A stretch of DNA of 64,000 bases, from positions 302,560,001 to 302,624,000 of the forward strand of contig JBNRSN020000006.1 in NCBI GenBank assembly GCA_051313645.2, written 5' to 3'. The DNA comes from Centroscyllium fabricii (taxonomy: Eukaryota). Made by a program: the position numbers and the translations under genes. Below the pieces are notes generated by a model. It had not been told where the DNA came from and did no database searches. It was given only the letters and a program-made list of their open reading frames with translations. Of the stretch, positions 14,861 through 31,255 are shown one piece after another (position 1 is the stretch's first letter; every line of letters starts with the position of its first letter).

Positions 14861-15334
14861 TTGAACTATTTCAGTTATTGAATCTACTTTGGAAAAGTAG
14901 GTAAAATTGCAAATGCTTATTCATCCCGTGTGAAGGCACCGATACCGAAAGCAAAGCACACATGAAAGATTGAACATTTGCACGTCTGCATTTGAATGGG
15001 GAAGGTGCGTTCAGGTCTTGGGCAGAATTCTGATGCAAGGTGTCCGTCCGCCAGCAGCGTGAACCTGTCTGGTTCCCTTTCAGGTGCCACTGAAACCTGC
15101 TGTGTATATACAGTGGTGTAGGCTGAGGGGTGGCAATTGGCCGGGTTGGATTTGTCCTGCTTTTTGTGGACAGGACATTCCTGGGCAGTTTTCCATTTAA
15201 ACATCTTAAGCACGTCAATTATTTAATTTCACTATACATAACTGGACAGGCTGGGGTTGTTTTCCTTGGAGCAGAAGAGGCTGAGGGGGGATCTGATTGA
15301 GGTGTACAAAATCATGAGGGGCATAGATAAGGTG

Positions 15335-15345
15335 TGTGGTAAACC

Positions 15346-15402
<57 letters not shown>

Positions 15403-15668
15403 TATATATATATGTTGTTTATTTTTATATATATTACCAACGGCCTGTAACTCTATATAGTTCTTTGTGTATTGCTTCCCTGGCCATGCCCATGCTAACA
15501 CCGCCTGTGACTCCTCCTCCCAGGACAGGTATATAAGCGACTGTCTCCCTCCCCCCATTCATTCCGGGAGCAGTCGACTAGCTGGTGCATGCCCAACCTT
15601 TTAGCTAATAAAAGCCTTTTGTTCACCTCGTAACTTCTCGTCTCCGAGGTCATTGGTAAGCACATCAA
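15335..15668 (+). mobile_element. Solo LTR related to the outer Gypsy LTR, containing (TG)n(TA)n
   Basis: Starts TGTGGTAA, has TATATAAG and AATAAAAGCC, and ends ATCAA, like the 19993/29146 LTRs. Flanked by a 128-bp direct repeat. Confidence 0.65.
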
Positions 15669-16668
15669 TTATTTAATTTCACTATACATAACTGGACAGG
15701 CTGGGGTTGTTTTCCTTGGAGCAGAGGAGGCTGAGGGGGGACCTGATTGAGGTGTACAAAATTATGAGGGGAATAGATAAGGTGGATGGAGTGGAACTTT
15801 TCCCCTTTTGTAGAGGGGTCAATAACTAGGGGGCATCATTTCAGGGTAAAGGGCAGGAGGTATCGTGGGGATGTGAGGAAGAACCTTTTCACCCAGAGGG
15901 TGGTTGGAGTCTGCAACTTACTGCGTGAAAGGGTGGTAGAGGTGGGAACCCTCAACGTTCAAGAAGCATTTGGATGAGCACTTGAAATGCCATAGCAGAC
16001 AAGGCTACGGACCAAATGCGGGAAAATGGGAGTAGTGTAGACTGGGATTGATGGGCGGCATGGACACGATGGGCCGAAGGGCCTCTATCTGTGCTGTATT
16101 ACTCTATGACTCTATAACGAATTACAGAGTAGGCGCAAGCATTGATGGTCATGTACACCTGATTTTACTGGTATCCACGCGGTTATTAATATCTCTGCCT
16201 GCAGTCCTGTTAACATTAACATTTTAAAGATATGCTGCTTTATAATGGCAGGGGTTTCTTTTTTTAATTCATTTATGTGATGTGGGCGTCGCTGGCAAGG
16301 CCCAGCATTTATTGCCCATCCCTTATCGCCCTCGAGAAGGTGGTGGTGAGCCGCCGCCTTGAACCGCTGCAGTCCGTGTGGTGAAGGTGCTCCCACAGTG
16401 CTGTTCGGGAGGGAGTTCCAGGAATTAGACCCAGCGACAATGAAGGATCGTAGGCAACGTGTTATTTTGCTGTTAGATGGTGGTGTACTTAAGCTGGTCT
16501 GTCCCATAAAGGCTAGGAAGTTTAATTGCAATAAGTGAACACAGCCGTAAGTCTCTCTGAATTTAACTGTTGTTTGGTGAGATACCTTTGAGGTTGGGTA
16601 TATATTAACTCCCTCATTTCTCTGTAAATTCTTAGTGTTGTTGACTTGTATTTGCCTCAAATTGTATA

Positions 16669-19705: not shown

Positions 19706-19992
19706 ACCGTGGCTCAGTGGGCAGCACTCGTGCCTCGGAGTCAGAAGGTCATGGGTTCAAGTTCCACCCCAGAGACTTGAGCAGAAAAATCTAGGCTGAC
19801 ACTCCAGTGCAGTACTGAGGTAGCGCCGCACTGTCTGAGGGGCAGTACTGAGGGAGCGCCGCACTGTCGGAGGAGCAGTACTGAGGGAGTGCCGCACTGT
19901 CGGAGTGTCAATACTGAGGGAGTGCCGCACTGTCGGAGGGGCAATACTGAGGGAGCGCCGCACTGTCGGAGGGGCAGGACTGAGGGAGTGCC
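19706..19992 (+). mobile_element. DeuSINE (SacSINE1-like), 5' part, with a 33-bp minisatellite
   Basis: CCGTGGCTCAGTGG...GGTTCAAGT...AATCTAGGCTGACACTCCAGTGCAGTACTGAG; continues at 29426-30445. Confidence 0.8.
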
Positions 19993-20267
19993 TGTGGTAA
20001 CCCATAATGTTATGTATACCACTGTATTCTTGTTGCCAATAATTGGCTGTGTATGTGTGATACACAGCCCTGTAACACTGTCGGGAGCCTGGTCCGCCAC
20101 ACCTCTAACTCTTCCCCCAGGTGAGGCCTTTATAGGTGGAGACTGACTGAGGCTCCCTCATTCCTGCTTAGATGTTCGTTCGGAGGGTAGCTCCTAAGTA
20201 AGTGATTAAAAGCCTATAGTTACGGTAACTACTCGTTGAGTCTTTTACTCTGAGATATCGACGATAC

Positions 20268-23200
20268 TGTAGAGGCATGCAGGCCTAAAGAACCACGCTG
20301 GACACAGAGGATTCGGAAAACAATCATTTAATGTTAACACAACTGGGGCCAGGTAGCAAAGAGACTGACCCACCTGGAACCAAGGTATTTAAAGGACCCA
20401 CGGTTGGTGACGTCACTGCCGGGTGTCCACCTGGCGACGTCATCACGCAGGAAGTCGCGGTGACGTCATCACGCCGCCCGGCGGGCGGGGCCGTCTCGCA
20501 GTACTCCTGAGGCGGATTCGATGGTCCTGGTGGGCGTGTCGCCACACAGCTCCCCCCCAGAATCTGTGAGGGAGAGCGAAGTTTAAGCTAAAGTAGAAAG
20601 GAGCATAAAGTAAAATAAAAAAATGGAGCATAAAAGTTGAGCCTCAGGCGAGGTGTTGAGGTGGCCTGATGATGCGGCCCGCCCGTGTAGTCTCAGGCGA
20701 GGCGTTGAGGTGGCCTGATGATGCGGCCAGCATGTGTCGTGCGCTGCTCCTTGTTCTGCGTGGGAGTGTGGGCGGGCTTTGGTGCGGTAGGGCGTCCGCG
20801 CTTTGGTGGCTGCGCGGGGACTGTTGTCTCACCCGCCATTACATGTGCCGGTTTGAGCCGGTCGATTGAGACAGTCTCGGCTCTGTTGCCCATTTTAATC
20901 TGGAACGTTTTAGGTCCCGCCTGAAGCACTCTGTACGGTCCGTCGTACGGTGGCTGTAGTGGTGTTCGATGTGCGTAGTGGCGGACAAACACATATTTGG
21001 CATTTTCGATGCCGTCTGGAATGCGTGCTGCCGGCTCTCCGTGCCGGGCCACCGGAAGTGGTTTGAACGCCGCTGCCTGGTTATTGAAGTCTTTGAGGCA
21101 GCGGTCGGCTGACCAGGGGGCGTTGGTTTCTGCGACGAACTCGCCTGGTACGGTTAGGGGTTGGCCATAGACAAGTTCCGCCGCTGAGGCGTGCAGGTCT
21201 TCCTTGGCCGCTGAACGCAGGCCGAGCATTACCCAGGGCAGGCGGTCGGTCCAGGTCGCGTCTTTGAGGCTGGCCCGCAAGGAAGCTTTGATGGAGCGGT
21301 GGAACCGTTCGCAGAGGCCATTGGCCTGTGGGTGGTAGGCGGTGGTTCGGTGCAGGGTTGCCCCGAGGTCGTGGGCGATGGTTGCCCATAGGGTTGAGGT
21401 AAATTGGGGGCCCCTGTCTGATGTGATGTCGGTGGGGACGCCGAAACGTGCGACCCAGGTGGCAATGAAGGCCCTGGCCAGGTCCGCGGTGGTGGTAGCG
21501 GTGAGGGGGACCGCTTCTGGCCAGCGGGTGCTGCGGTCGACCATGGTCATGACGTGTATGTCCCCGTGATGGTGGTAGTGGTCCAACCAGGTTGATGTGG
21601 ACGTGGCTGAAGCGTCTAGCTGGGATGGCGATCGTTTCTACTGGTGCCTTGATGTGCTTGTGCACCTAGGCGCGCTGGCAGGCATTGCAGGTGTTGGTTC
21701 AGGCGCGGACATCCTTGCGCAGGCCGCGCCAAACGAATCGCGCAGAGATCAGCTTTGTGGACGCGCGGACACCGGGGTGGGACAGGTCATGGAGGGTCTG
21801 GAAGATGTGTCGCCTCCATGCGTGGGGGACGATGGGTCTGGGCTGCGGGAGGGAGACGTCGCAGCGGACCTCCGTGGCTGTGGGCCCGTGTGCTACGGTG
21901 GCCAAGAGCAGGCCGGGGAGGTTGGTAGCTGGGTCGAGCAGATTGGGGTTGGTCAGTTGGTCGGCCGCCAGTTTGGCGTAGTCGACGGCCGTTTGAACGG
22001 AGTTGATGGTGGGGCGTGAGAGGCAGTCAGCGACCACGTTGTCGCGGCCGGCGATGTGCTGTATGTCGGTGGTAAACTCCGACACAGCCGCGAGCTGGCG
22101 CTGCTGCCTGGCCGACCAGGGTTCAGAGATCTTGGCCATTGCGGACACAAGTGGCTTGTGATCCACGAAGGATGTGAAGTGGCGGCCCTCTAGGAGGAAG
22201 CGAAAGTGGCGCACCGCGAGGCAGAGAGCGAGTAGCTCCCTATCGAAGACGCTGTACTTGACCTCCGGCGGCCGGAGTTGTCGGCTGAAAAAGGCCAGGG
22301 GTTGCCAGGAGTCGCCTGTCCACTGCTCAAAGACTGCTCCGATGGCGCGGTCGGAGGCGTCGGTGGTGAGGGCTACTCTGGCGTTGGACCTAGTGTGGCT
22401 GAGGAGCGTGGCGTTGGCCAGGGCGGTTTTGGTTGCGGTAAAGGCGGTGGACGCTTCGGCCGTCCACTCGACCGCAGCCTTGTTGGACTGCCCGCGGGTG
22501 GCCTGATAGAGGGGTGCCATGAGAGCGGCTGCTCCTGGGATGAAGCAGTTATAGAAGTTAACCATCCCGAGGAATTCCTGCAGCCCCTTGATGGAGTGCG
22601 GGCGGGGGAATTCCTGAACCGCCTGCACCTTGGAGGGCAGGGGTATGGCACCGGTCTGGGAGATGTGGTGGCCGAGGAAGTCGATCGTCTCGAGGCCGAA
22701 TCGACATTTGGAGGGGCTTAATATAAGGCCGTGTTCGGCCAGGCGGTTGAAAAGGGCCCTGAGATGGAGGAGGTGTTCCTGGGGGGGAGGTGCTGGCCAC
22801 GAGGATGTCGTCTAGGTAGACGAACGTGAACTGCAAGTCCTGCAGGACTGAGTCCATGAGGCGTTGGAAGGCCTGGGTCGCGTTTTTGAGTCCGAAGGGC
22901 ATTCGGAAAAATTCAAATAATCCAAATGGGGTAATGACAGCTGTCTTAGGGACGTCCGCCGGGTGCACTGGTACCTGGTGGTAGCCCCGTACCAGGTCGA
23001 TCTTGGAAAAGACCGTGCAGCCGGCTAGCCTTGCTGAGAAATCTTGGATGTGGGGGACGGGGTACCTGTCCGGGGTGGTGGCGTTGTTGAGGCGGCGGTA
23101 GTCTCCGCAGGGGCGCCAGCCGCCGCCGGGTTTGGGGGCAATGTGGAGGGGAGAGGCCCAGGGGCTGCTGGAGCGGCGGATTATGCCGAGTTGTTCCATG

Positions 23201-24893
23201 ATGTGGAACTCGGCGCGCGCAATCTCCAGCTTGGCCGGGTCCAGCCTGCGTGCGTGGGCATGGACTGGGTGGCCTGTGGTGGTGATGTGGTGCTCCACCC
23301 CGTGCTTGGCCGTGCGGGCTGTGAAGGTGGGGTTGGTTAGGGCTGGGAACGCCGCGAGGAGCGTGGCGTACGTGTCGGAGTTCCGGGCTCGGCAGTGGGA
23401 CGCTGCGTGGGTCTGGTGTGCCGGCCCTGTGGAGCATGGGATGGTCGACATGTTGTGGATGTCGACCAGGCCGCGTCGGGTAACGTCGACCAGGAGGCCA
23501 TGGGCGCACAGAAAGTCGGCCCCGAGTAGGGGTATTTTGACTTGGGCTGTGATGAAATCCCACTTGTACGTGTGGCCTGCTAGCTTGATGGTAAGCTGGC
23601 GGGTGCCGAACGTAACTATCTCGGAGCCGTTTGCGGCTTCGAGTGGTGGGCCTTGGGTGCATTGCTTGGTTTCTGCGGGGGAGGCTGGCACGATGCTGTG
23701 CTGCGCGCCTGTGTCGCAGAGGAAGCGGAGGCCTGAGCCACTGTCCGTGACGAAGAGCAGTGCTCCGGAGCGGCCTACGGACATGGTGGGGCTTGGGCTG
23801 GTTTGGAGTTTGAAGGTGCAGGGCTGGACGCAGCGCTGCGCTTTAGGTTCAAACCTGGTGTGGTAGTAGCACCAGCCGGGGCCTGTGGTGCGTGGCTTTT
23901 TACGGGTCCGCACCGGTCTGGGTTGGGACCTGGGGCCGGGCCTGGGGTGCGCGTAGTACTGCTCCGGTGGAGCGGCGGTCGGTTGGCACGTGGCGGCTCG
24001 GGTGCGCTCGGCCCTCATCAGCTTGTTGGCCTCCTGAGCCAGTTGCTCCTTGGTATAGTGCTCAAGGACCGTCAGAGCCGGTCTGACGGAGGGGGGCAGT
24101 TTAAGGAGGAACAAGGCGCGCTTAATGGTGGCCGGGTCGCAATTGAGCGCTTCCATTTGGGCCCAGAGGTCCGATGGGTCTGCGTCCCCGAGTTCGGGGA
24201 GGTTAATGAGCTGGCAGTCGCGCTCAAATTGGGTGGGGGTGAATTTTTGTAGCAGCGCGGCCTTAAGCGGTTCATACCTGCCAGCGGTTGGTTCGTGCTG
24301 TATGGATGACCACATTCGGTCGATCGTGGGCTGTGAAAGGGCCGCGAAGAGCAGGCTGTATCGATCGTCCCCCTGCACGCCATGGATGCGGTAGGTGTTC
24401 TCTGTGTTGAGGAACCAGGCCGCTGGACGGAGTTCCCAGAACTCTGGTAAGTTTGGGATTTGGCCGTAGTTCTGGCCCCGTCTGTGGAGTCGTGCTGTTT
24501 GGCTCCCTGCTGGCATGGTGGTTGTGATTCAACTGAGGCAGCTTGGCCCTCAGTCCTGCAGCAACTGCTTCATTATGTTCCCTTGGAATTCGTTCCAAGT
24601 ATCGAGGTCACCACTGTAGAGGCATGCAGACCTGAAGAACCACGCTGGACACAGAGGATTCGGAAAACAATCATTTAATGTTAACACAACTAGGGCCAGG
24701 TAGCAAAGAGACTGAGCCACCTGGAACCAAGGTATTTAAAGGACCCGCGGTTGGTGACGTCACTGCCGGGTGTCCACCTGGCGACGTCATCACGCCGGAA
24801 GTCGCGGTGACGTCATCACGCAGCCCGGCGGGCGGGGCCGTCTCGCAGTACTCCCGAGGCGGATTCGATGGTCCTGGTGGGCGTGTCGCCACA
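20268..24893 (-). mobile_element. Ty3/Gypsy LTR retrotransposon, CsRn1-like (inner element), nested in the outer 5' LTR
   Basis: 279-bp TG...CA LTRs at 20268-20546 and 24615-24893 with 8 differences; TSD ATAC; tRNA-Trp-type PBS TGGTGACCTCGA; PPT CTGGGGGGGAG; gag CHCC motif CYYHTRF..AQRCVQPC. Confidence 0.95.
20693..24516 (-). pseudogene. Disrupted gag-pol of the inner Gypsy
   Basis: PR (LCDTGA), RT (YLDDILV), RNase H (TDASD), and integrase (VDRSTRWPEA, SDRGPQF, GPY). Frameshifts at ~22780 and ~21570; stops at ~21699 and ~21667. Confidence 0.92.
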
Positions 24894-24927
24894 ATACGTC
24901 AATTTTAATCACTTAAAGTTTTTTAAA

Positions 24928-27900
24928 ATGGAGAGCGGTGCAGTAAAGCCAGAAAAGCTGGACATCAGTCCACAGGACCCTGCCGCCGCCACCACGTTCG
25001 AACACTGGTTCGGTCTCCTGGAGGCCTATATGGACGCCGCCAAGGCTACAACCGACGGGAACAAGCTACAGGTTCTCCGGTCCAGGATCTCCAGCCGAGT
25101 ATTCTCCCTCATCCGAGATGCCAAAACCTACCCAGGGGCAGTGGAAAAGCTGAGGAAATGCTAGAGTGCCCGGTCCATTCGGTCTACGCCAGACATGTGC
25201 TCGCGACCAGACCACAACTACCGGGTGAGACTAATGAACAATTTGAGCAAGCGCTCCAGGCCCTGGTACGGGTCTGTGGCTGCCAAGCCCGGACAGCAGA
25301 AGAGGAGGCGAACCTCCTCGTCCGAGACGCGTATGTAACTGGACTAAGGTGCGTGGAGGCCCGCCAGCGGCTGCTCGAAAAAGACACTTTGTCCCTCGAA
25401 GACGCGATTGCTATATCTAACTCCGTGGAAGGAGCACGCAACAAACTACAAGCTTACAGCGGCACAAACCTGCAGGCCTACGACATGTGGGCCGCGCCAC
25501 AACGGACCCAGGCCTGGGCAGCACCACAACGGGTTGAGACCCCCACGATGGCTGCGACAGCCACAAAAGACAAACGCTGCTACTTCTGCAGCCAGGGACT
25601 GCACCCGAGAGCGAGATGCCCAGCAAGGACCGCGACCTGTGAGAGGTGCACCAAGAAGGGACATTACGCAAAGGCTTGCAGATCAGCACCAACAGCGCCC
25701 AACTCCAGGTACAACAGCGCAGCCTGTGAAAGCGACAGACCTCAGGTAAGCTGCAATAGCAGCGCGATCCAGCGACGGTCCGGGCGTAGGAGGAAAGCGC
25801 CCCCATCTCCCACCCCGAGGCGGCAAAGGCCGGCCAAGCGCGACCCCCCAACGCCAGCAGCAGACCCAATGCGGCCGGCTGCGTGCGAATCACGGGCACC
25901 GCCAACCCGACCACCGCGGCTCGCTGCGTGCGAACCACGGGCACCGCCAACCCAGCCACCGCGGCCCGCTGCGTGCGAACCACGGGCGCCGCCAGCGCGC
26001 TCACCGCGGTCAGCCGCGTGCGAACCACGGGCGCCGCCATCTCGCCCCCGGCGGCCCACCATGTGCGACCCCTCGGCGCCGCCATTTTGTCCCCAGGGCC
26101 CCACCATGTGCGAGCCAGGGGCGCCGCCATTTTGTCTACAGGGCCCCACCATGTGCGAGCCAGGGGCGCCGCCATTTTGTGTACAGCCCCAACCAGCCGG
26201 GGGCCCACACACACAAAAGCACACGTCTGCTTCAGCCATACCCAGAGTGGACCAGGACAGGCCACACACCCTGTCTAACTCAATAATGCCCATCAAAATA
26301 AACGGCCATACTACTAATTGCCTATTTGACACTGGAAGCACGGAGAGCTTTGTGCACCCCGATACAGTGCAGCGCTGCGGACTGCAGATCCTGCCCACAA
26401 ACTATCAAGTCTCCCTTGCTTCAAAGTCCCACACCGCGGACGTCACCGGCTACTGCTCCGTCACGCTCACAGTCAAGGGGTGCGTGTACCGTAATTTTAA
26501 ATGGTACACCCTCCAGCAGTTGTGTGCCCCAGCCTTACTAGGTCTGGATTTCCAGTGCCACCTCAAGAGCGTGACAATGGAGTTCGGCGGGACCTTGCCC
26601 CCCCTCACCGTCAGTAGCCGGGACAGTCCCTTCCCAAAGCGGAGCCCAGCCGGCGGCTTCTCCACCCTGAAAATCGACCCCCCCTCACTGTTCGCCAACA
26701 TCGACCCCAAGTGCAAACCTATTGCTACCAAGAGTCGGCGGTACAGTGTGGGGGATCGCACGTTTATCAGGTCGGAGGTCGGGCGTATGCTGAAGGAGGG
26801 GATAATTGAAGCCAGCACCAGCCCCTGGCGCGCCCAGGTTGTAGTGGTAAAGTCTGGCGAGAAACAACGGCTGGTGATCGATTACAGCCAGACCATCAAC
26901 CGCGACACCGGGCTTGACGCCTACCCCCTTCCCCGCATCTCGGAAATGGTCAATCAGATCGCCCAGTACAAGGTGTTCTCTACGATCGACCTTAAGTCAG
27001 CGTATCACCAACTCCCGATCCGGAAAGCCGACCGCCCCATCACCGCCTTCGAGGCGAACGGTCGGCTCTACCACTTCCTCCGGGTCCCCTTCGGCGTGAC
27101 CACGGAGTGTCAGTGTTCCAGCGGGAGATGGACCGCATGGTTGACCAGAACGAGTTGCAGGCCACTTTCCCCTACCTGGACAACGTGACCATCTGCGGCC
27201 ACGACCAGCAGGACAACGATGCCAATCTGGCCAAATTTCTCGACACGGCGGATAAGCTGGACCTCACGTATAACAAAGACAAATGTGTCTTTAATACAGA
27301 CCGGCTCGCCATCCTCGGATACGTGGTGGAGAACGGGGTCCTCGGCCCCGACCCACAGCGTATGCGACCCCTTCAAGAACTGCCCCTACCTCACAACCCT
27401 AAAGCCTTGAGATGCCTAGGATTTTTCTCCTATTACGCACAATGGGTCCCACAGTTCGCGGACAAGGCTAGACCACTCCTCAAGGCTGCCGTTTTCCCCC
27501 TTTCGGTAGAAGCCCAAACGGCATTCGCCCGGATAAAGGAAGACATCATCAAGGCGACCATGCTCGCTGTTGATGAATCTATTCCCTTCCAGGTGGAGAG
27601 CGACGCTTCGGACTTCACCCTTGCTGCCACCCTGAATCAGGCAGGCAGGCCCGTAGCGTTTTTCTCCCGCACCCTACAGGGACCCGAAACTCGCCACTCA
27701 GCAGTGGAAAAAGAGGCCCAGGCCATCGTGGAGGCCATGCGCTACTGGCGTCATTACCTGGCCGGTAAGCGTTTTACCCTTCGCACCGACCAACGGTCGG
27801 TGGCGTGTATGTTTAATAATAAACAGAAGGGTAAGATCAAGAATGATAAGATCATGCAGTGGCGGATCGAACTCTCGACTTACGAGTATGACATTCTTTA

Positions 27901-29160
27901 CCGACCAGGGAAACTTAATGAACCCCCGGACGCACTGTCCAGCTGGACCGGCTGAAGGACCTCCACGACCGCCTCTGCCACCCGGGTGTCACCAGACTCG
28001 CCCACTTCGTCAGATCCCGTAGCCTCCCCTACTCCATCACGGAGATCAAGGCTATGACCCGAGAGTGCCCTGTTTGCGCCGAGTGCAAACCCCAATTTTT
28101 CCGGCCAGACACGGTGCTCCTCATCAAGGCCACCCGCCCCTTTGAACGTCTCAACGTGGACTTCAAAGGCCCCCTCCCCACCACCGACCGCAACTCATAC
28201 TTCCTCACGGTCGTAGATGAGTTCTCCCGCTTCCCCTTCGCCTTCCCCTGCGCAGATATGACGAGCGCAACGGTGATAAAACACTTCACCACGCTGTTCA
28301 CCATTTTCGGTCTCCCCAGCTACATCCATAGCGACCGAGGGTCATCGTTCATGAGCGATGAACTGCGTCAGTTTCTGCTCCAGAAAGGGGTTGCCACGAG
28401 CAGAACGACCAGTTATAACCCCCGGGGGAACGGCCAGGTAGAAAGGGAGAATGGGATCATCTGGAAGGCGGTCACCCTGGCTCTGAAGTCCAGAGGCCTT
28501 CCAGTGGCCCATTGGCAGGCAGTCCTCCCAGATGCGCTGCATTCTATACGCTCTCTCCTATGTACGGCCACTAACGCAACTCCTCATGATTTGATTTTTG
28601 CTTTTCCCAGGAAGTCGACTTCGGGGACAGCTCTTCCTCCATGGCTCACGACACCGGGGCCGGTCTTCCTTAGAAGACACGTCCGTGGCCACAAGACCGA
28701 CCCCCTGGTGGACAAGGTGCAGCTCCTGCATGTGAACCCGCAATACGCATTCGTGCAGTTCCCGGACGGGCGTGAGGACGCCGTATCTATCAGGGACCTG
28801 GCGCCCGCAGGAAGCACCGCAGAGCCCCTGGTCGGCCAGCAGGCCGCTCAGCCACAGTATCCAGAACACCCCCTACACCTACAATGGCCTCCGAGTTTTC
28901 CAGAGCCCCAGCGGTGGCCAACCCACGACCACTCCGATAGCTCGGACCAGCGGAGACCATCACCACCCGAAACCATGGCACCAGGGCAACTGTCACCACC
29001 AGCGGACTCGAGCAGCACGGACCATGAAGGATCATCACCGGAACTCCGGCGGTCCTCCAGGCTGGCACGACCACCGGATAGGCTGATATTGAACTGCTCG
29101 GTCCATTCACCCCCCCCGGACTTAAAATTTTCAAGAAGGGGTGTATGTGGTAACCCATAA
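24928..29160 (+). pseudogene. Disrupted gag-pol of the outer Gypsy
   Basis: Two zinc knuckles (CYFC..H...C; CERC..GHYAKAC), PR (LFDTGS), RT (YLDNVTI), RNase H (ESDASD), and integrase (HHCC, DFKGP, SDRG). Frameshifts at ~25160, ~27105 and ~27940. Confidence 0.92.
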
Positions 29161-29425
29161 TGTTATGTATACCACTGTATTCTTGTTGCCAATAATTGGC
29201 GCTGTATGTGTGATACACAGCCCTGTAACACTGTCGGGAGCCAGGTCAGCCACACCTCTAACTCCTCCCCCAGGTGAGGCCTTTATAGGTGGAGACTGAC
29301 TGAGGCTCCCTCATTCCTGCTTAGATGTTCGTTCGGAGGGTAGTTCCTAAGTAAGTGATTAAAAGCCTATAGTTACGGTAACTACTCGTTGAGTCTTTTA
29401 CTCTGAGATATCGACGATACGTCAA

Positions 29426-30115
29426 TGCCGCACTGTCGAAGGGGCAGTGCTGAGGGAGCGCCGCACTGTCGGAGGGGCAGTAGTGAGGGAGCGCCGCACT
29501 GTCGGAGGGGCAGGACTGAGGGAGCGCCGTACTGTCGGAGGGGCAATACTGAGGGAGCGCCGCACTGTTGGAGGCGCAGGACTAAGGGAGTGCCGCACTG
29601 TCGCAGGGGCAGTACTGAGGGAGTGCTGCACTGTCGGAGGATCAGTACTGAGGGAGCGCCATACTGAGGAGCACCGCAGTGTCGGAGGGACAGTATTGAG
29701 GGAGCGCCGCACTGTAGGAGGGGCAATACTGAGGGAGCGCCGCACTATTGGATGGGCAGGACTGAGGGAGTGCCGCACTGTCGGAGGGGCAGTACTGAGG
29801 GAGCGCCGCACTGTCGGAGGGGCAGTACTGAGGGAGGGCCGCACTGTCGGAGGGGCAGTACTGAGGGAGCGCCGCACTGTCGGAGGGGCAGTACTGAGGG
29901 AGCCCCGCACTGTCGGAGGGGCAGTACGGAGGGAGCGCCGCACTGTCGGAGGTGCAGTACTGAGGGAGCGCCGCACTGTCGGAGGGGCAGTACTGAGGGA
30001 GCGCCGCACTGTCGGAGGGTCAGTACTGAGGGAACGCCGCACTGTCGGAGGGGCAGTACTGAGGGAGCGCCCCACTGTCGGAGGGGCAGTACTGAGGGAG
30101 TGCCGCACTGTCTGA
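29426..30115. repeat. 33-bp minisatellite derived from the DeuSINE body (~20 copies)
   Basis: Unit GCACTGTCGGAGGGGCAGTACTGAGGGAGCGCC; the DeuSINE resumes at 30120-30445. Confidence 0.93.
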
Positions 30116-31255
30116 GCTACCATCTTTCAGATGAGAAGTTAATCTGAGGCCCCATCTGTTCTCTCCGGTATAAAGATCCCGTGGCACTATTTCGAAGAAT
30201 ACCAGGGGGGAGTTCTCCCCGGTGTCCTGGGGCCAATATTTATCCCTCAACCAACATCACTAAAACAGATTATCTGGTCATTATCACATTGCTGTTTGCG
30301 GGAGCTTGCTGTGCAAAAAATGGTTGCCGCACTGCCTGCATTACAACAGTGACGGCACTTCAAAAAGTACTTCAGTGGCTGTGAAGCGCTTTGGTATGTT
30401 CTGAGGTTGTGAAAGGCGCTATAGAAATGCAAGCCTGTCTTTCTTTCAATAATAAAACTAATAAAGCCAATGAGGAATTCAGGAGAAACTTCTTTACTCA
30501 GAGTGGTGAGAATGTGAGGTTGAGGTGAAATGTATAGATACTTTTAAGGGGAAGTGAGGTAAACACATGAGGGAGAAAGGAATAGAAGGATTTACTGATA
30601 GGGTGAGATGAAGAGGGTGGGAGGAGGCTCGTGTGGAGCATAAACCCCGGCACGGACTAGTGGGGCCACTTGACCTGTTCCTGTGCTGTAAGCAGACAAT
30701 GCTGGAAACGCTCCAAGCTGGTTTGATTCTCCGTGTATATATCGTGCATTTGCAACTTCTGCAGTATGTGACTCCTGTTGCACATTGAAATGTTTCCAAG
30801 TCTGGTCTGTTGGGCCTGGATAGTCTGGAATTCTCTTATCTGGCAGCATGAGTTGGTACTGGGCCACGCGGGACACCCTCGTGTTGTCGGCTAGTCTGGC
30901 TAGACCAAGTTAAGAGGCGTGTTTCAGATGCAATTATACGTGCTGCTGTGAACAGCCTCTCGGCTTCAAAAACATTTTAACACGGCATTGACAGCAGGGG
31001 CTCCAACCCCTCCCAAGATTGCCCTGGAGTCTCCCAAGAATTAAAGATTAATCACCAGGACTCTGCTCTGAGCAAACTGGAGCAAAATCTGGAGGGGGCA
31101 TTTAAAAAAATATTTTTTTGTTTCATATTATTAGAACACTTTTTGATAACTTGAGATGGGGAAAATGTCTTTGACTTTAGCAAGTGGTTGGAGGTTGTGT
31201 GATGGAACCTCCCAGGAATATGTCCAACCACAATTGGCAGCCCTACCACTTAGAA

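Follow-up and report, generated by a model that had tools for sequence, protein, structure and literature searches.

The self-primer of the retrotransposon Tf1 is 11 nt long. Such self-priming, in which the 5' end of the element's own RNA serves as primer and a three-duplex 'pretzel' is formed, is established for Tf1 and has been described for the Tf1/sushi chromoviruses in the available portions of the sources (10.1101/2022.12.06.519325, PMC4600332, PMC5341516). About half of the Tf1 cDNA carries a DNA copy of the self-primer, according to the accessible part of PMC11042837. For plant Tcn1 chromoviruses and the TAR (Houba/Osr-1) Copia elements, the sections of PMC6317226 at hand predict self-priming from complementarity to the long terminal repeat (LTR). 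Here we describe a Gypsy element from the shark Centroscyllium fabricii that appears to prime in a related way. It occupies positions 19993-29424 (+) of a 64,000-nt stretch (assembly GCA_051313645.2, contig JBNRSN020000006.1), which we call the window and whose coordinates are used throughout. Its 5' LTR is interrupted by a second, nested element; we therefore refer to it as the outer element. The complementarity between its primer site and its own LTR is a real, family-wide feature. Self-priming is very likely and a 5' primer of about 52 nt probable, as a variant of the known mechanism.

The primer site complements the element's own LTR

The primer site of the outer element (24903-24915) is the exact reverse complement of 20199-20211 in the 5' LTR and of 29352-29364 in the 3' LTR. 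These are the sole three matches in the window, with up to two mismatches allowed. An earlier note on this DNA had claimed a 13/13 complement of the post-LTR 13-mer in both outer LTRs, and the exact match search in the window bears this out. The junction of LTR end and primer site occurs 4,746 times in exact form in the genome (control: 0). The same note had remarked that no TGG follows the outer 5' LTR. This is correct, while the nested inner element does carry a TGG-type site, and the primer site starts with TGG in none of the 20 leaders described below. A tRNA scan of the primer site gave a best match of 9/13 among only 27 distinct tRNAs of two types, a set too narrow to cover tRNA halves, and no Rfam match was found in 19900-29500. 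The complementary LTR segment had been placed about 65-70 nt downstream of a TATA-like box; the box begins at 20129, 70 nt ahead of the motif.

The LTR boundaries needed correction. The exact LTR end occurs 37,719 times in the genome, and we sampled 30 ends regardless of the sequence that follows, 10 of them host-flanked and 20 at 5' junctions. The next base at the host-flanked ends is A in five, C in four and G in one, and the 5-bp duplication after ...GTCA is perfect in six of seven LTR end pairs (4/5 in the seventh). The LTRs are thus TG...CA with a 5-bp duplication, and not TG...AA with a TGCC duplication as first read; the single mismatch in the duplication of the window copy had been misleading. 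The true layout is an LTR ending in CA, one spacer A and then the primer site, with A24902 a spacer base of the internal region and not part of the LTR. The TG...CA LTRs, target duplication and polypurine tract of Ty3/Gypsy LTR retrotransposons are all present in the outer family.

The 20 unbiased 5' junctions from the shark's own genome carry six motif types. The primer site matches the LTR motif of its own copy at 13/13 positions in 14 of them and at 12 or more in 19. In 20,000 permutations, from which one insertion-bearing copy was left out, the mean was 3.0 perfect pairs and the maximum 9, against 14 observed among 19 copies that are related and do not represent independent events. Motif positions 8, 9 and 12 vary jointly on the primer-site and the LTR side. 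The covariation check that the earlier note had proposed therefore came out in its favor: complementarity is kept family-wide. Another of its predictions concerned the internal start of full-length relatives of the lone LTR at 15335. The end of this LTR is unique in the genome, so that the second family was reached through its motif (6,016 genome matches). From 30 loci picked by LTR motif and not by primer site, 12 of 15 5' junctions read CA-A-TTTTATTAGC, as predicted, and the other three are damaged.

We then compared 20 leaders, seven from the own genome and 13 from metagenome loci of other animals. The metagenome sample began with 80 loci, of which 49 were screened for LTR pairs and 18 leaders were read; three near-copies and two leaders without a readable junction were dropped. 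In L033, L035 and L089, the LTR end was placed via the junction pattern, which is partly circular. Pairs of a primer site and its own motif agree at 13/13 positions in 16 leaders, at 12 in two and at 11 in two, while 0 of 380 cross pairs reach 13, and with shuffled bases the observed score came up in no more than 14 of 2,000 cases. The complement begins exactly one base past the LTR end in 20/20 leaders, the bases following the motif are GCC in 14/20, and the loop measures 20-65 nt. Relatives occur in sharks, rays, a sea anemone, a sea slug, shrimps, a ctenophore and a tapeworm; none was found in viral contigs, and an own-genome DNA search and a short peptide search gave no match.

The duplex is predicted in all eight leaders that were folded after being cut to the duplex ends (z -3.2 to -5.6). 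In the window, the 13-nt LTR segment contains ATTAAA at 20205-20210. AATAAA or ATTAAA lies inside the motif in 13/20 leaders and is absent in 7/20, two of which have a hexamer further downstream. The earlier suggestion of a hairpin that hides the poly(A) signal thus stands only in part: it may be a side effect in this family, but it is not the conserved core of the feature. No poly(A)-tailed genomic copy of the element was found.

Ends of inverted arms cluster at the predicted transcription start

A set of aberrant copies in the genome have a primer site that extends into LTR sequence in inverted orientation. We discovered these inverted arms through a test of position 14 as evidence of primer copying. 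There, C is found in 65 of 81 non-A copies, which looked supportive. Of the 22 C loci read, however, 13 come from one sublineage, and 10 of these 13 have A at this place in their own LTR, so the test was rejected. Exact arm matches number 183 for the family of the outer element (family A) and 106 for that of the 15335 LTR (family B), with 0 in the controls; 99 and 30 arms, respectively, were read.

The spacing of TATA box and initiator had pointed to A20160 as start before any arm end was read, with the initiator consensus applied to 20158-20164. In both families, an initiator-type A follows the TATA box by about 30 nt, and the primer 3' end lies another 52-53 nt on. Of the 99 family A arms, 38 end within 1 nt of this A (29 exactly), 28 run to or near the LTR outer end, 24 fall short of the start and nine end in between; the shorter arms are graded, from 26 to 50 nt. 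After merging of shared joints, 8/40 end at the initiator A (p = 6e-4 versus the surrounding 25 positions). Family B has 26 internal ends, and 14 of them fall no more than one base from the initiator A, all with different joints (p = 4e-8). The LTR of this family has two overlapping initiator-like motifs, and the ends pile up at the second. Arm length is 52-53 nt in both families despite their differing sequences.

Start-site arms follow a host-flanked LTR in 35/38 (A) and 9/14 (B) cases, the rest having no readable LTR start, and in neither family does one follow an LTR preceded by a polypurine tract. They differ from their own LTR at two positions or fewer in 33/38 and 11/14 cases. Beyond the arm, the DNA resumes in element sense at 32/41 joints (A) and 10/26 joints (B); 12 of the family B joints map to no element copy. 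Read on the opposite strand, an arm copy consists of the transcript from +1 to +52, followed by a minus strand that starts opposite the spacer A. A primer attached to nascent DNA would be expected to look like this.

Of eight palindromes flanked on either side by host DNA, seven show a perfect 5-bp duplication and hence formed before integration. L204, L215, L218, L223, L267, L284 and L249 are such short insertions with perfect 5-bp duplications, made up of LTR, primer site and inverted U3-R; they are integrated products with two U3 ends and no genes. Rearrangement at the level of the host genome is disfavored as arm source, given that the arms break off at +1 or at the terminus of the LTR and that 5-bp duplications flank the palindromes. 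In L116, L217 and L224, a polypurine tract precedes the LTR and a primer site follows it, which makes them tandem elements sharing one LTR. This arrangement is also reported for Tf1/Tf2 in the part of PMC11042837 available.

A model for priming and its alternatives

Both the covariation and the arms that end at the predicted start support the earlier proposal that the element primes itself without a tRNA, using a partner that lies well past the transcription start. We are highly confident that the element primes with its own R sequence. Transcription would start at A20160, judging by the TATA/initiator spacing and the arm ends. Bases +40 to +52 would pair with the primer site, as the covariation indicates, and close a predicted loop of 60 nt. 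A cut after +52, which we infer to lie behind 20211, would free a 3'-OH and leave the preceding 39 nt unpaired; RNase H is the candidate enzyme by analogy with Tf1. DNA synthesis would begin opposite the spacer A, so that the LTR end is fixed at CA+A, the position that is in fact observed. After strand transfer, the unpaired part of the primer would normally be removed, or would not become fixed in the product; a possible reason is that its complement is later present in the minus strand. In some 1% of events or fewer (a rough figure, as counts from different patterns are compared), the plus strand would copy the whole primer to its 5' end and rejoin elsewhere or fold back on its own LTR. The inverted arms would then be the outcome of copying an untrimmed primer. 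Arms that reach the LTR end go beyond what the 5' fragment can template by itself, so they need either a fold-back, their presumed source, or a 3' template. Where a 5' poly(A) hexamer is present, the pairing would cover it as well. Taken together, a Gypsy element without chromodomain probably primes with the predicted first 52 nt of its own transcript, only the last 13 nt being paired, after a likely RNase H cut.

Several observations weigh against this model. The whole 152-nt leader folds with the duplex, but not exceptionally (z -1.6), and two of the 20 leaders match at only 11/13 positions. One joint in gag, at a short stretch of matching sequence, is common to 27 of the 38 start-site arms in family A, and these may reflect few events. 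This joint lies about 160 nt into the internal region, and its 27 copies (L206, L210, L213 and 24 others) come from at least two subfamilies; it is either a hot spot or the result of spreading non-autonomous sublineages. The last arm base is kept in 23 of the 27, while the four others and an unrearranged copy differ there. Arms that extend to the LTR outer end are common in family A (28/99) and occur in family B (4/30), and four of those in family A pass the LTR end into the polypurine tract. The start, cut and poly(A) sites are predictions from DNA only. Finally, the arms fix the RNA 5' end better than the primer length, because a copy of a 13-nt primer could anneal to a second, uncut RNA.

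The last point leads to an alternative that we consider unlikely, namely that the 13-nt segment is cut on both sides to give a short self-primer and that long arms arise when plus-strand DNA anneals to another packaged RNA whose 5' end is uncut. A particle as a rule contains two copies of the RNA, normal element copies have only 13-14 complementary bases, and arms ending at +1 are predicted here too. However, this would require another cut as well as a partner RNA that is still intact late in the cycle, and the graded arms of 26-50 nt suit a partly degraded long primer. The primer might also be the 3' copy of R, if the RNA tail were trimmed back to the motif and the genome primed itself as a circle. 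The 28/99 and 4/30 arms that traverse U3 would fit such a template, and the four that continue into the polypurine tract keep some room for it. But a pile-up at +1 in two families would then have no explanation, and arms ending at the TG of the LTR are accounted for if a self-complementary plus strand folds back before integrating, as the perfect duplications of 7/8 palindromes indicate. We regard this version as distinctly less probable again.

The chances are slimmer still for the two remaining explanations. One takes the complementarity for a regulatory hairpin that hides the 5' poly(A) signal, as AATAAA or ATTAAA in 13/20 motifs might suggest, and leaves priming to some host RNA, for instance half of a tRNA. 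Copia lineages with half-tRNA priming are known (PMC6317226, in the part available), and our tRNA scan was too narrow for halves. Yet one host RNA cannot track six motif variants in one genome plus 13 in other animals, 7/20 motifs have no hexamer, the complement sits one base past the LTR end in every leader, and the arms copy element RNA, so that this explanation is already largely refuted. The other, which is equally improbable, has the same 5' fragment come in trans from other LTRs, as short RNAs that are made by solo LTRs or terminated early. Tens of thousands of LTRs are present, and 5/38 and 3/14 arms show three or more differences from their own LTR in an ungapped count. Against it, most arms are within two bases of their own LTR, and primer site and motif are matched by subfamily.

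Organization of the locus

The features of the locus are collected in Table 1. The two outer LTRs show six differences over 275 shared positions.

Table 1. Features of the outer element and its surroundings (window positions)
Feature	Position	Strand	Basis or remark
Lone LTR, second family of the same clade, damaged end	15335..15660	+	Motif at 15600-15613
Left target-site duplication of outer element, 5 bp	19988..19992	+	Partner 29425-29429, one mismatch
Outer 5' LTR, main part (U3, R, most of U5)	19993..20267	+	Sequence comparison with 3' LTR
TATA-like box	20129..20135	+	Sequence; second family has a clearer TATA at the same spacing
Initiator-type motif, A20160 the predicted transcription start (+1)	20158..20164	+	Inverted-arm ends pile up at the equivalent base
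Predicted primer RNA, 52 nt (+1 to +52)	20160..20211	+	Arm ends, covariation
13-nt segment complementary to primer site	20199..20211	+	Exact matching, covariation
Nested second Gypsy element, other clade, inserted 4 nt before outer 5' LTR end	20268..24893	-	TGG-type primer site; 4-bp duplication 20264-20267/24894-24897
Final four bases of outer 5' LTR, ending CA	24898..24901	+	Family-wide LTR-end comparison
Single spacer A between LTR end and primer site	24902..24902	+	A in 19/20 leaders
Primer-binding site complementary to own R region	24903..24915	+	Exact matching, covariation
gag-pol, frame broken at several places	24928..29095	+	Two zinc knuckles, then protease, reverse transcriptase, RNase H, integrase, in this order; no chromodomain found
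Polypurine tract	29133..29141	+	Sequence
Outer 3' LTR, TG...CA	29146..29424	+	Sequence; motif copy at 29352-29364
Right target-site duplication	29425..29429	+	Partner 19988-19992

The outer element sits inside a 33-nt minisatellite (flanks 19725-19992 and 29425-30209). The lone LTR at 15335 has lost its normal end, and a host segment of about 125 nt is present on either side of it (15209-15334 and 15657-15783). The nested element (insertion site 20264-20267) occupies the loop of a small hairpin at the outer LTR end. At locus L007 (near 1500), a different-looking LTR of the nested family is found at the same four bases, which suggests that this family inserted repeatedly at one site in the outer LTR end.

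Clade placement

The protease, the reverse transcriptase (RT), the RNase H and the integrase follow the domain order of Ty3/Gypsy elements, and the best match among solved structures is Ty3 Gag-Pol. No chromodomain was detected in any of the six integrase-bearing clade proteins at E 0.1; one was found in a control element of the same genome. In a tree of RT, RNase H and integrase, the clade forms one branch (support 99/99) with 23 of 31 rows, apart from the sole chromodomain-bearing row, which is long-branched and 48% filled. The tree is midpoint-rooted and built without named reference elements, and rows L015, L076, L248 and L342 mix in pieces of nested elements. The nested element of the window, which we take to be CsRn1-like, lies outside the clade of the outer element, as do two own-genome elements that are presumably Mag-like by their motifs. 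The double zinc knuckle in Gag has a spacing that we assume to be similar to that of the Mag lineage. With no chromodomain in 6/6 proteins and the control element that has one outside the branch, the clade works like Tf1 but is not assigned to the Tf1/sushi chromoviruses. Self-priming here likely arose independently of theirs.

The catalytic motif of the RT is YLDN, not YXDD, in the window copy (26996-27955). Among 54 aligned relatives, the position of the second Asp is Asn in 42, Asp in 11 and misaligned in one. A literature search for YXDN or YLDN in retrotransposons found no report.

We lean somewhat towards the full description that combines these features: an animal-wide Gypsy clade without chromodomain, self-priming independently of Tf1/sushi by a capped 5' fragment some 52 nt long, of which only the last 13 nt pair, a conserved AAA|GCC-like cut site, frequent masking of the 5' poly(A) signal, mostly Asn for the second Asp of the RT motif YXDD, and hundreds of failed products that record the full primer length.

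Comparison with known systems

The family is large (37,719 LTR ends), and annotation based on tRNAs would label such elements as having no primer-binding site. That a second large clade seems to have come to self-priming on its own, with a primer that is probably long and paired only in part, bears on which was first, tRNA or hairpin priming, and on how LTR elements silence their 5' poly(A) signal. With the fossil arms, start sites and primers of LTR elements could be mapped using nothing but DNA.

Our literature search found no description of the arrangement; Repbase, GyDB and most subscription papers were outside its range. Neither the portions seen of PMC3601003, PMC13524379, PMC2871265 and PMC5006619 nor those of the PMC6238403 supplements describe it, and the parts of paper supplements examined (including PMC6238403 and PMC12471100) gave no name for the clade. 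Saci2/lennie and CsRn1 resemble it in their short single gag-pol, and a chromodomain is not mentioned for them (for Saci2, in the accessible part of PMC12471100). Saci2 has 4-bp duplications and tRNA-assigned primer sites, as far as section 2.2 of that paper goes, versus 5-bp duplications and a self-complement here; the three tapeworm relatives are not in its Saci2 table. Skipper of dictyostelids also has no TGG at the primer position, but these elements are chromoviruses for which no LTR complement was found, according to the available text of PMC5006619. TAR and Tcn1 are plant lineages, TAR being Copia, and no primer with an unpaired 5' part is described for them in the sections of PMC6317226 at hand.

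The closest systems remain Tf1/Tf2/Tj1 and the Tf1/sushi elements. Going by the portions of their literature cited above, they share with our clade a missing tRNA site, a primer site that complements the own R region, a proposed RNase H cut and a primer that can be copied into DNA. Self-priming in animal Gypsy elements has so far been described for the Tf1/sushi chromoviruses, and a second large clade seems to have reached it separately. Whereas the Tf1/sushi self-primer is the extreme RNA 5' end, the paired segment here lies 39-40 nt inside the inferred transcript in two families. Moreover, it often lies over a poly(A) hexamer, its loop is predicted to contain local hairpins, and no chromodomain was found in the clade, in contrast to Tf1/sushi elements, which bear one.

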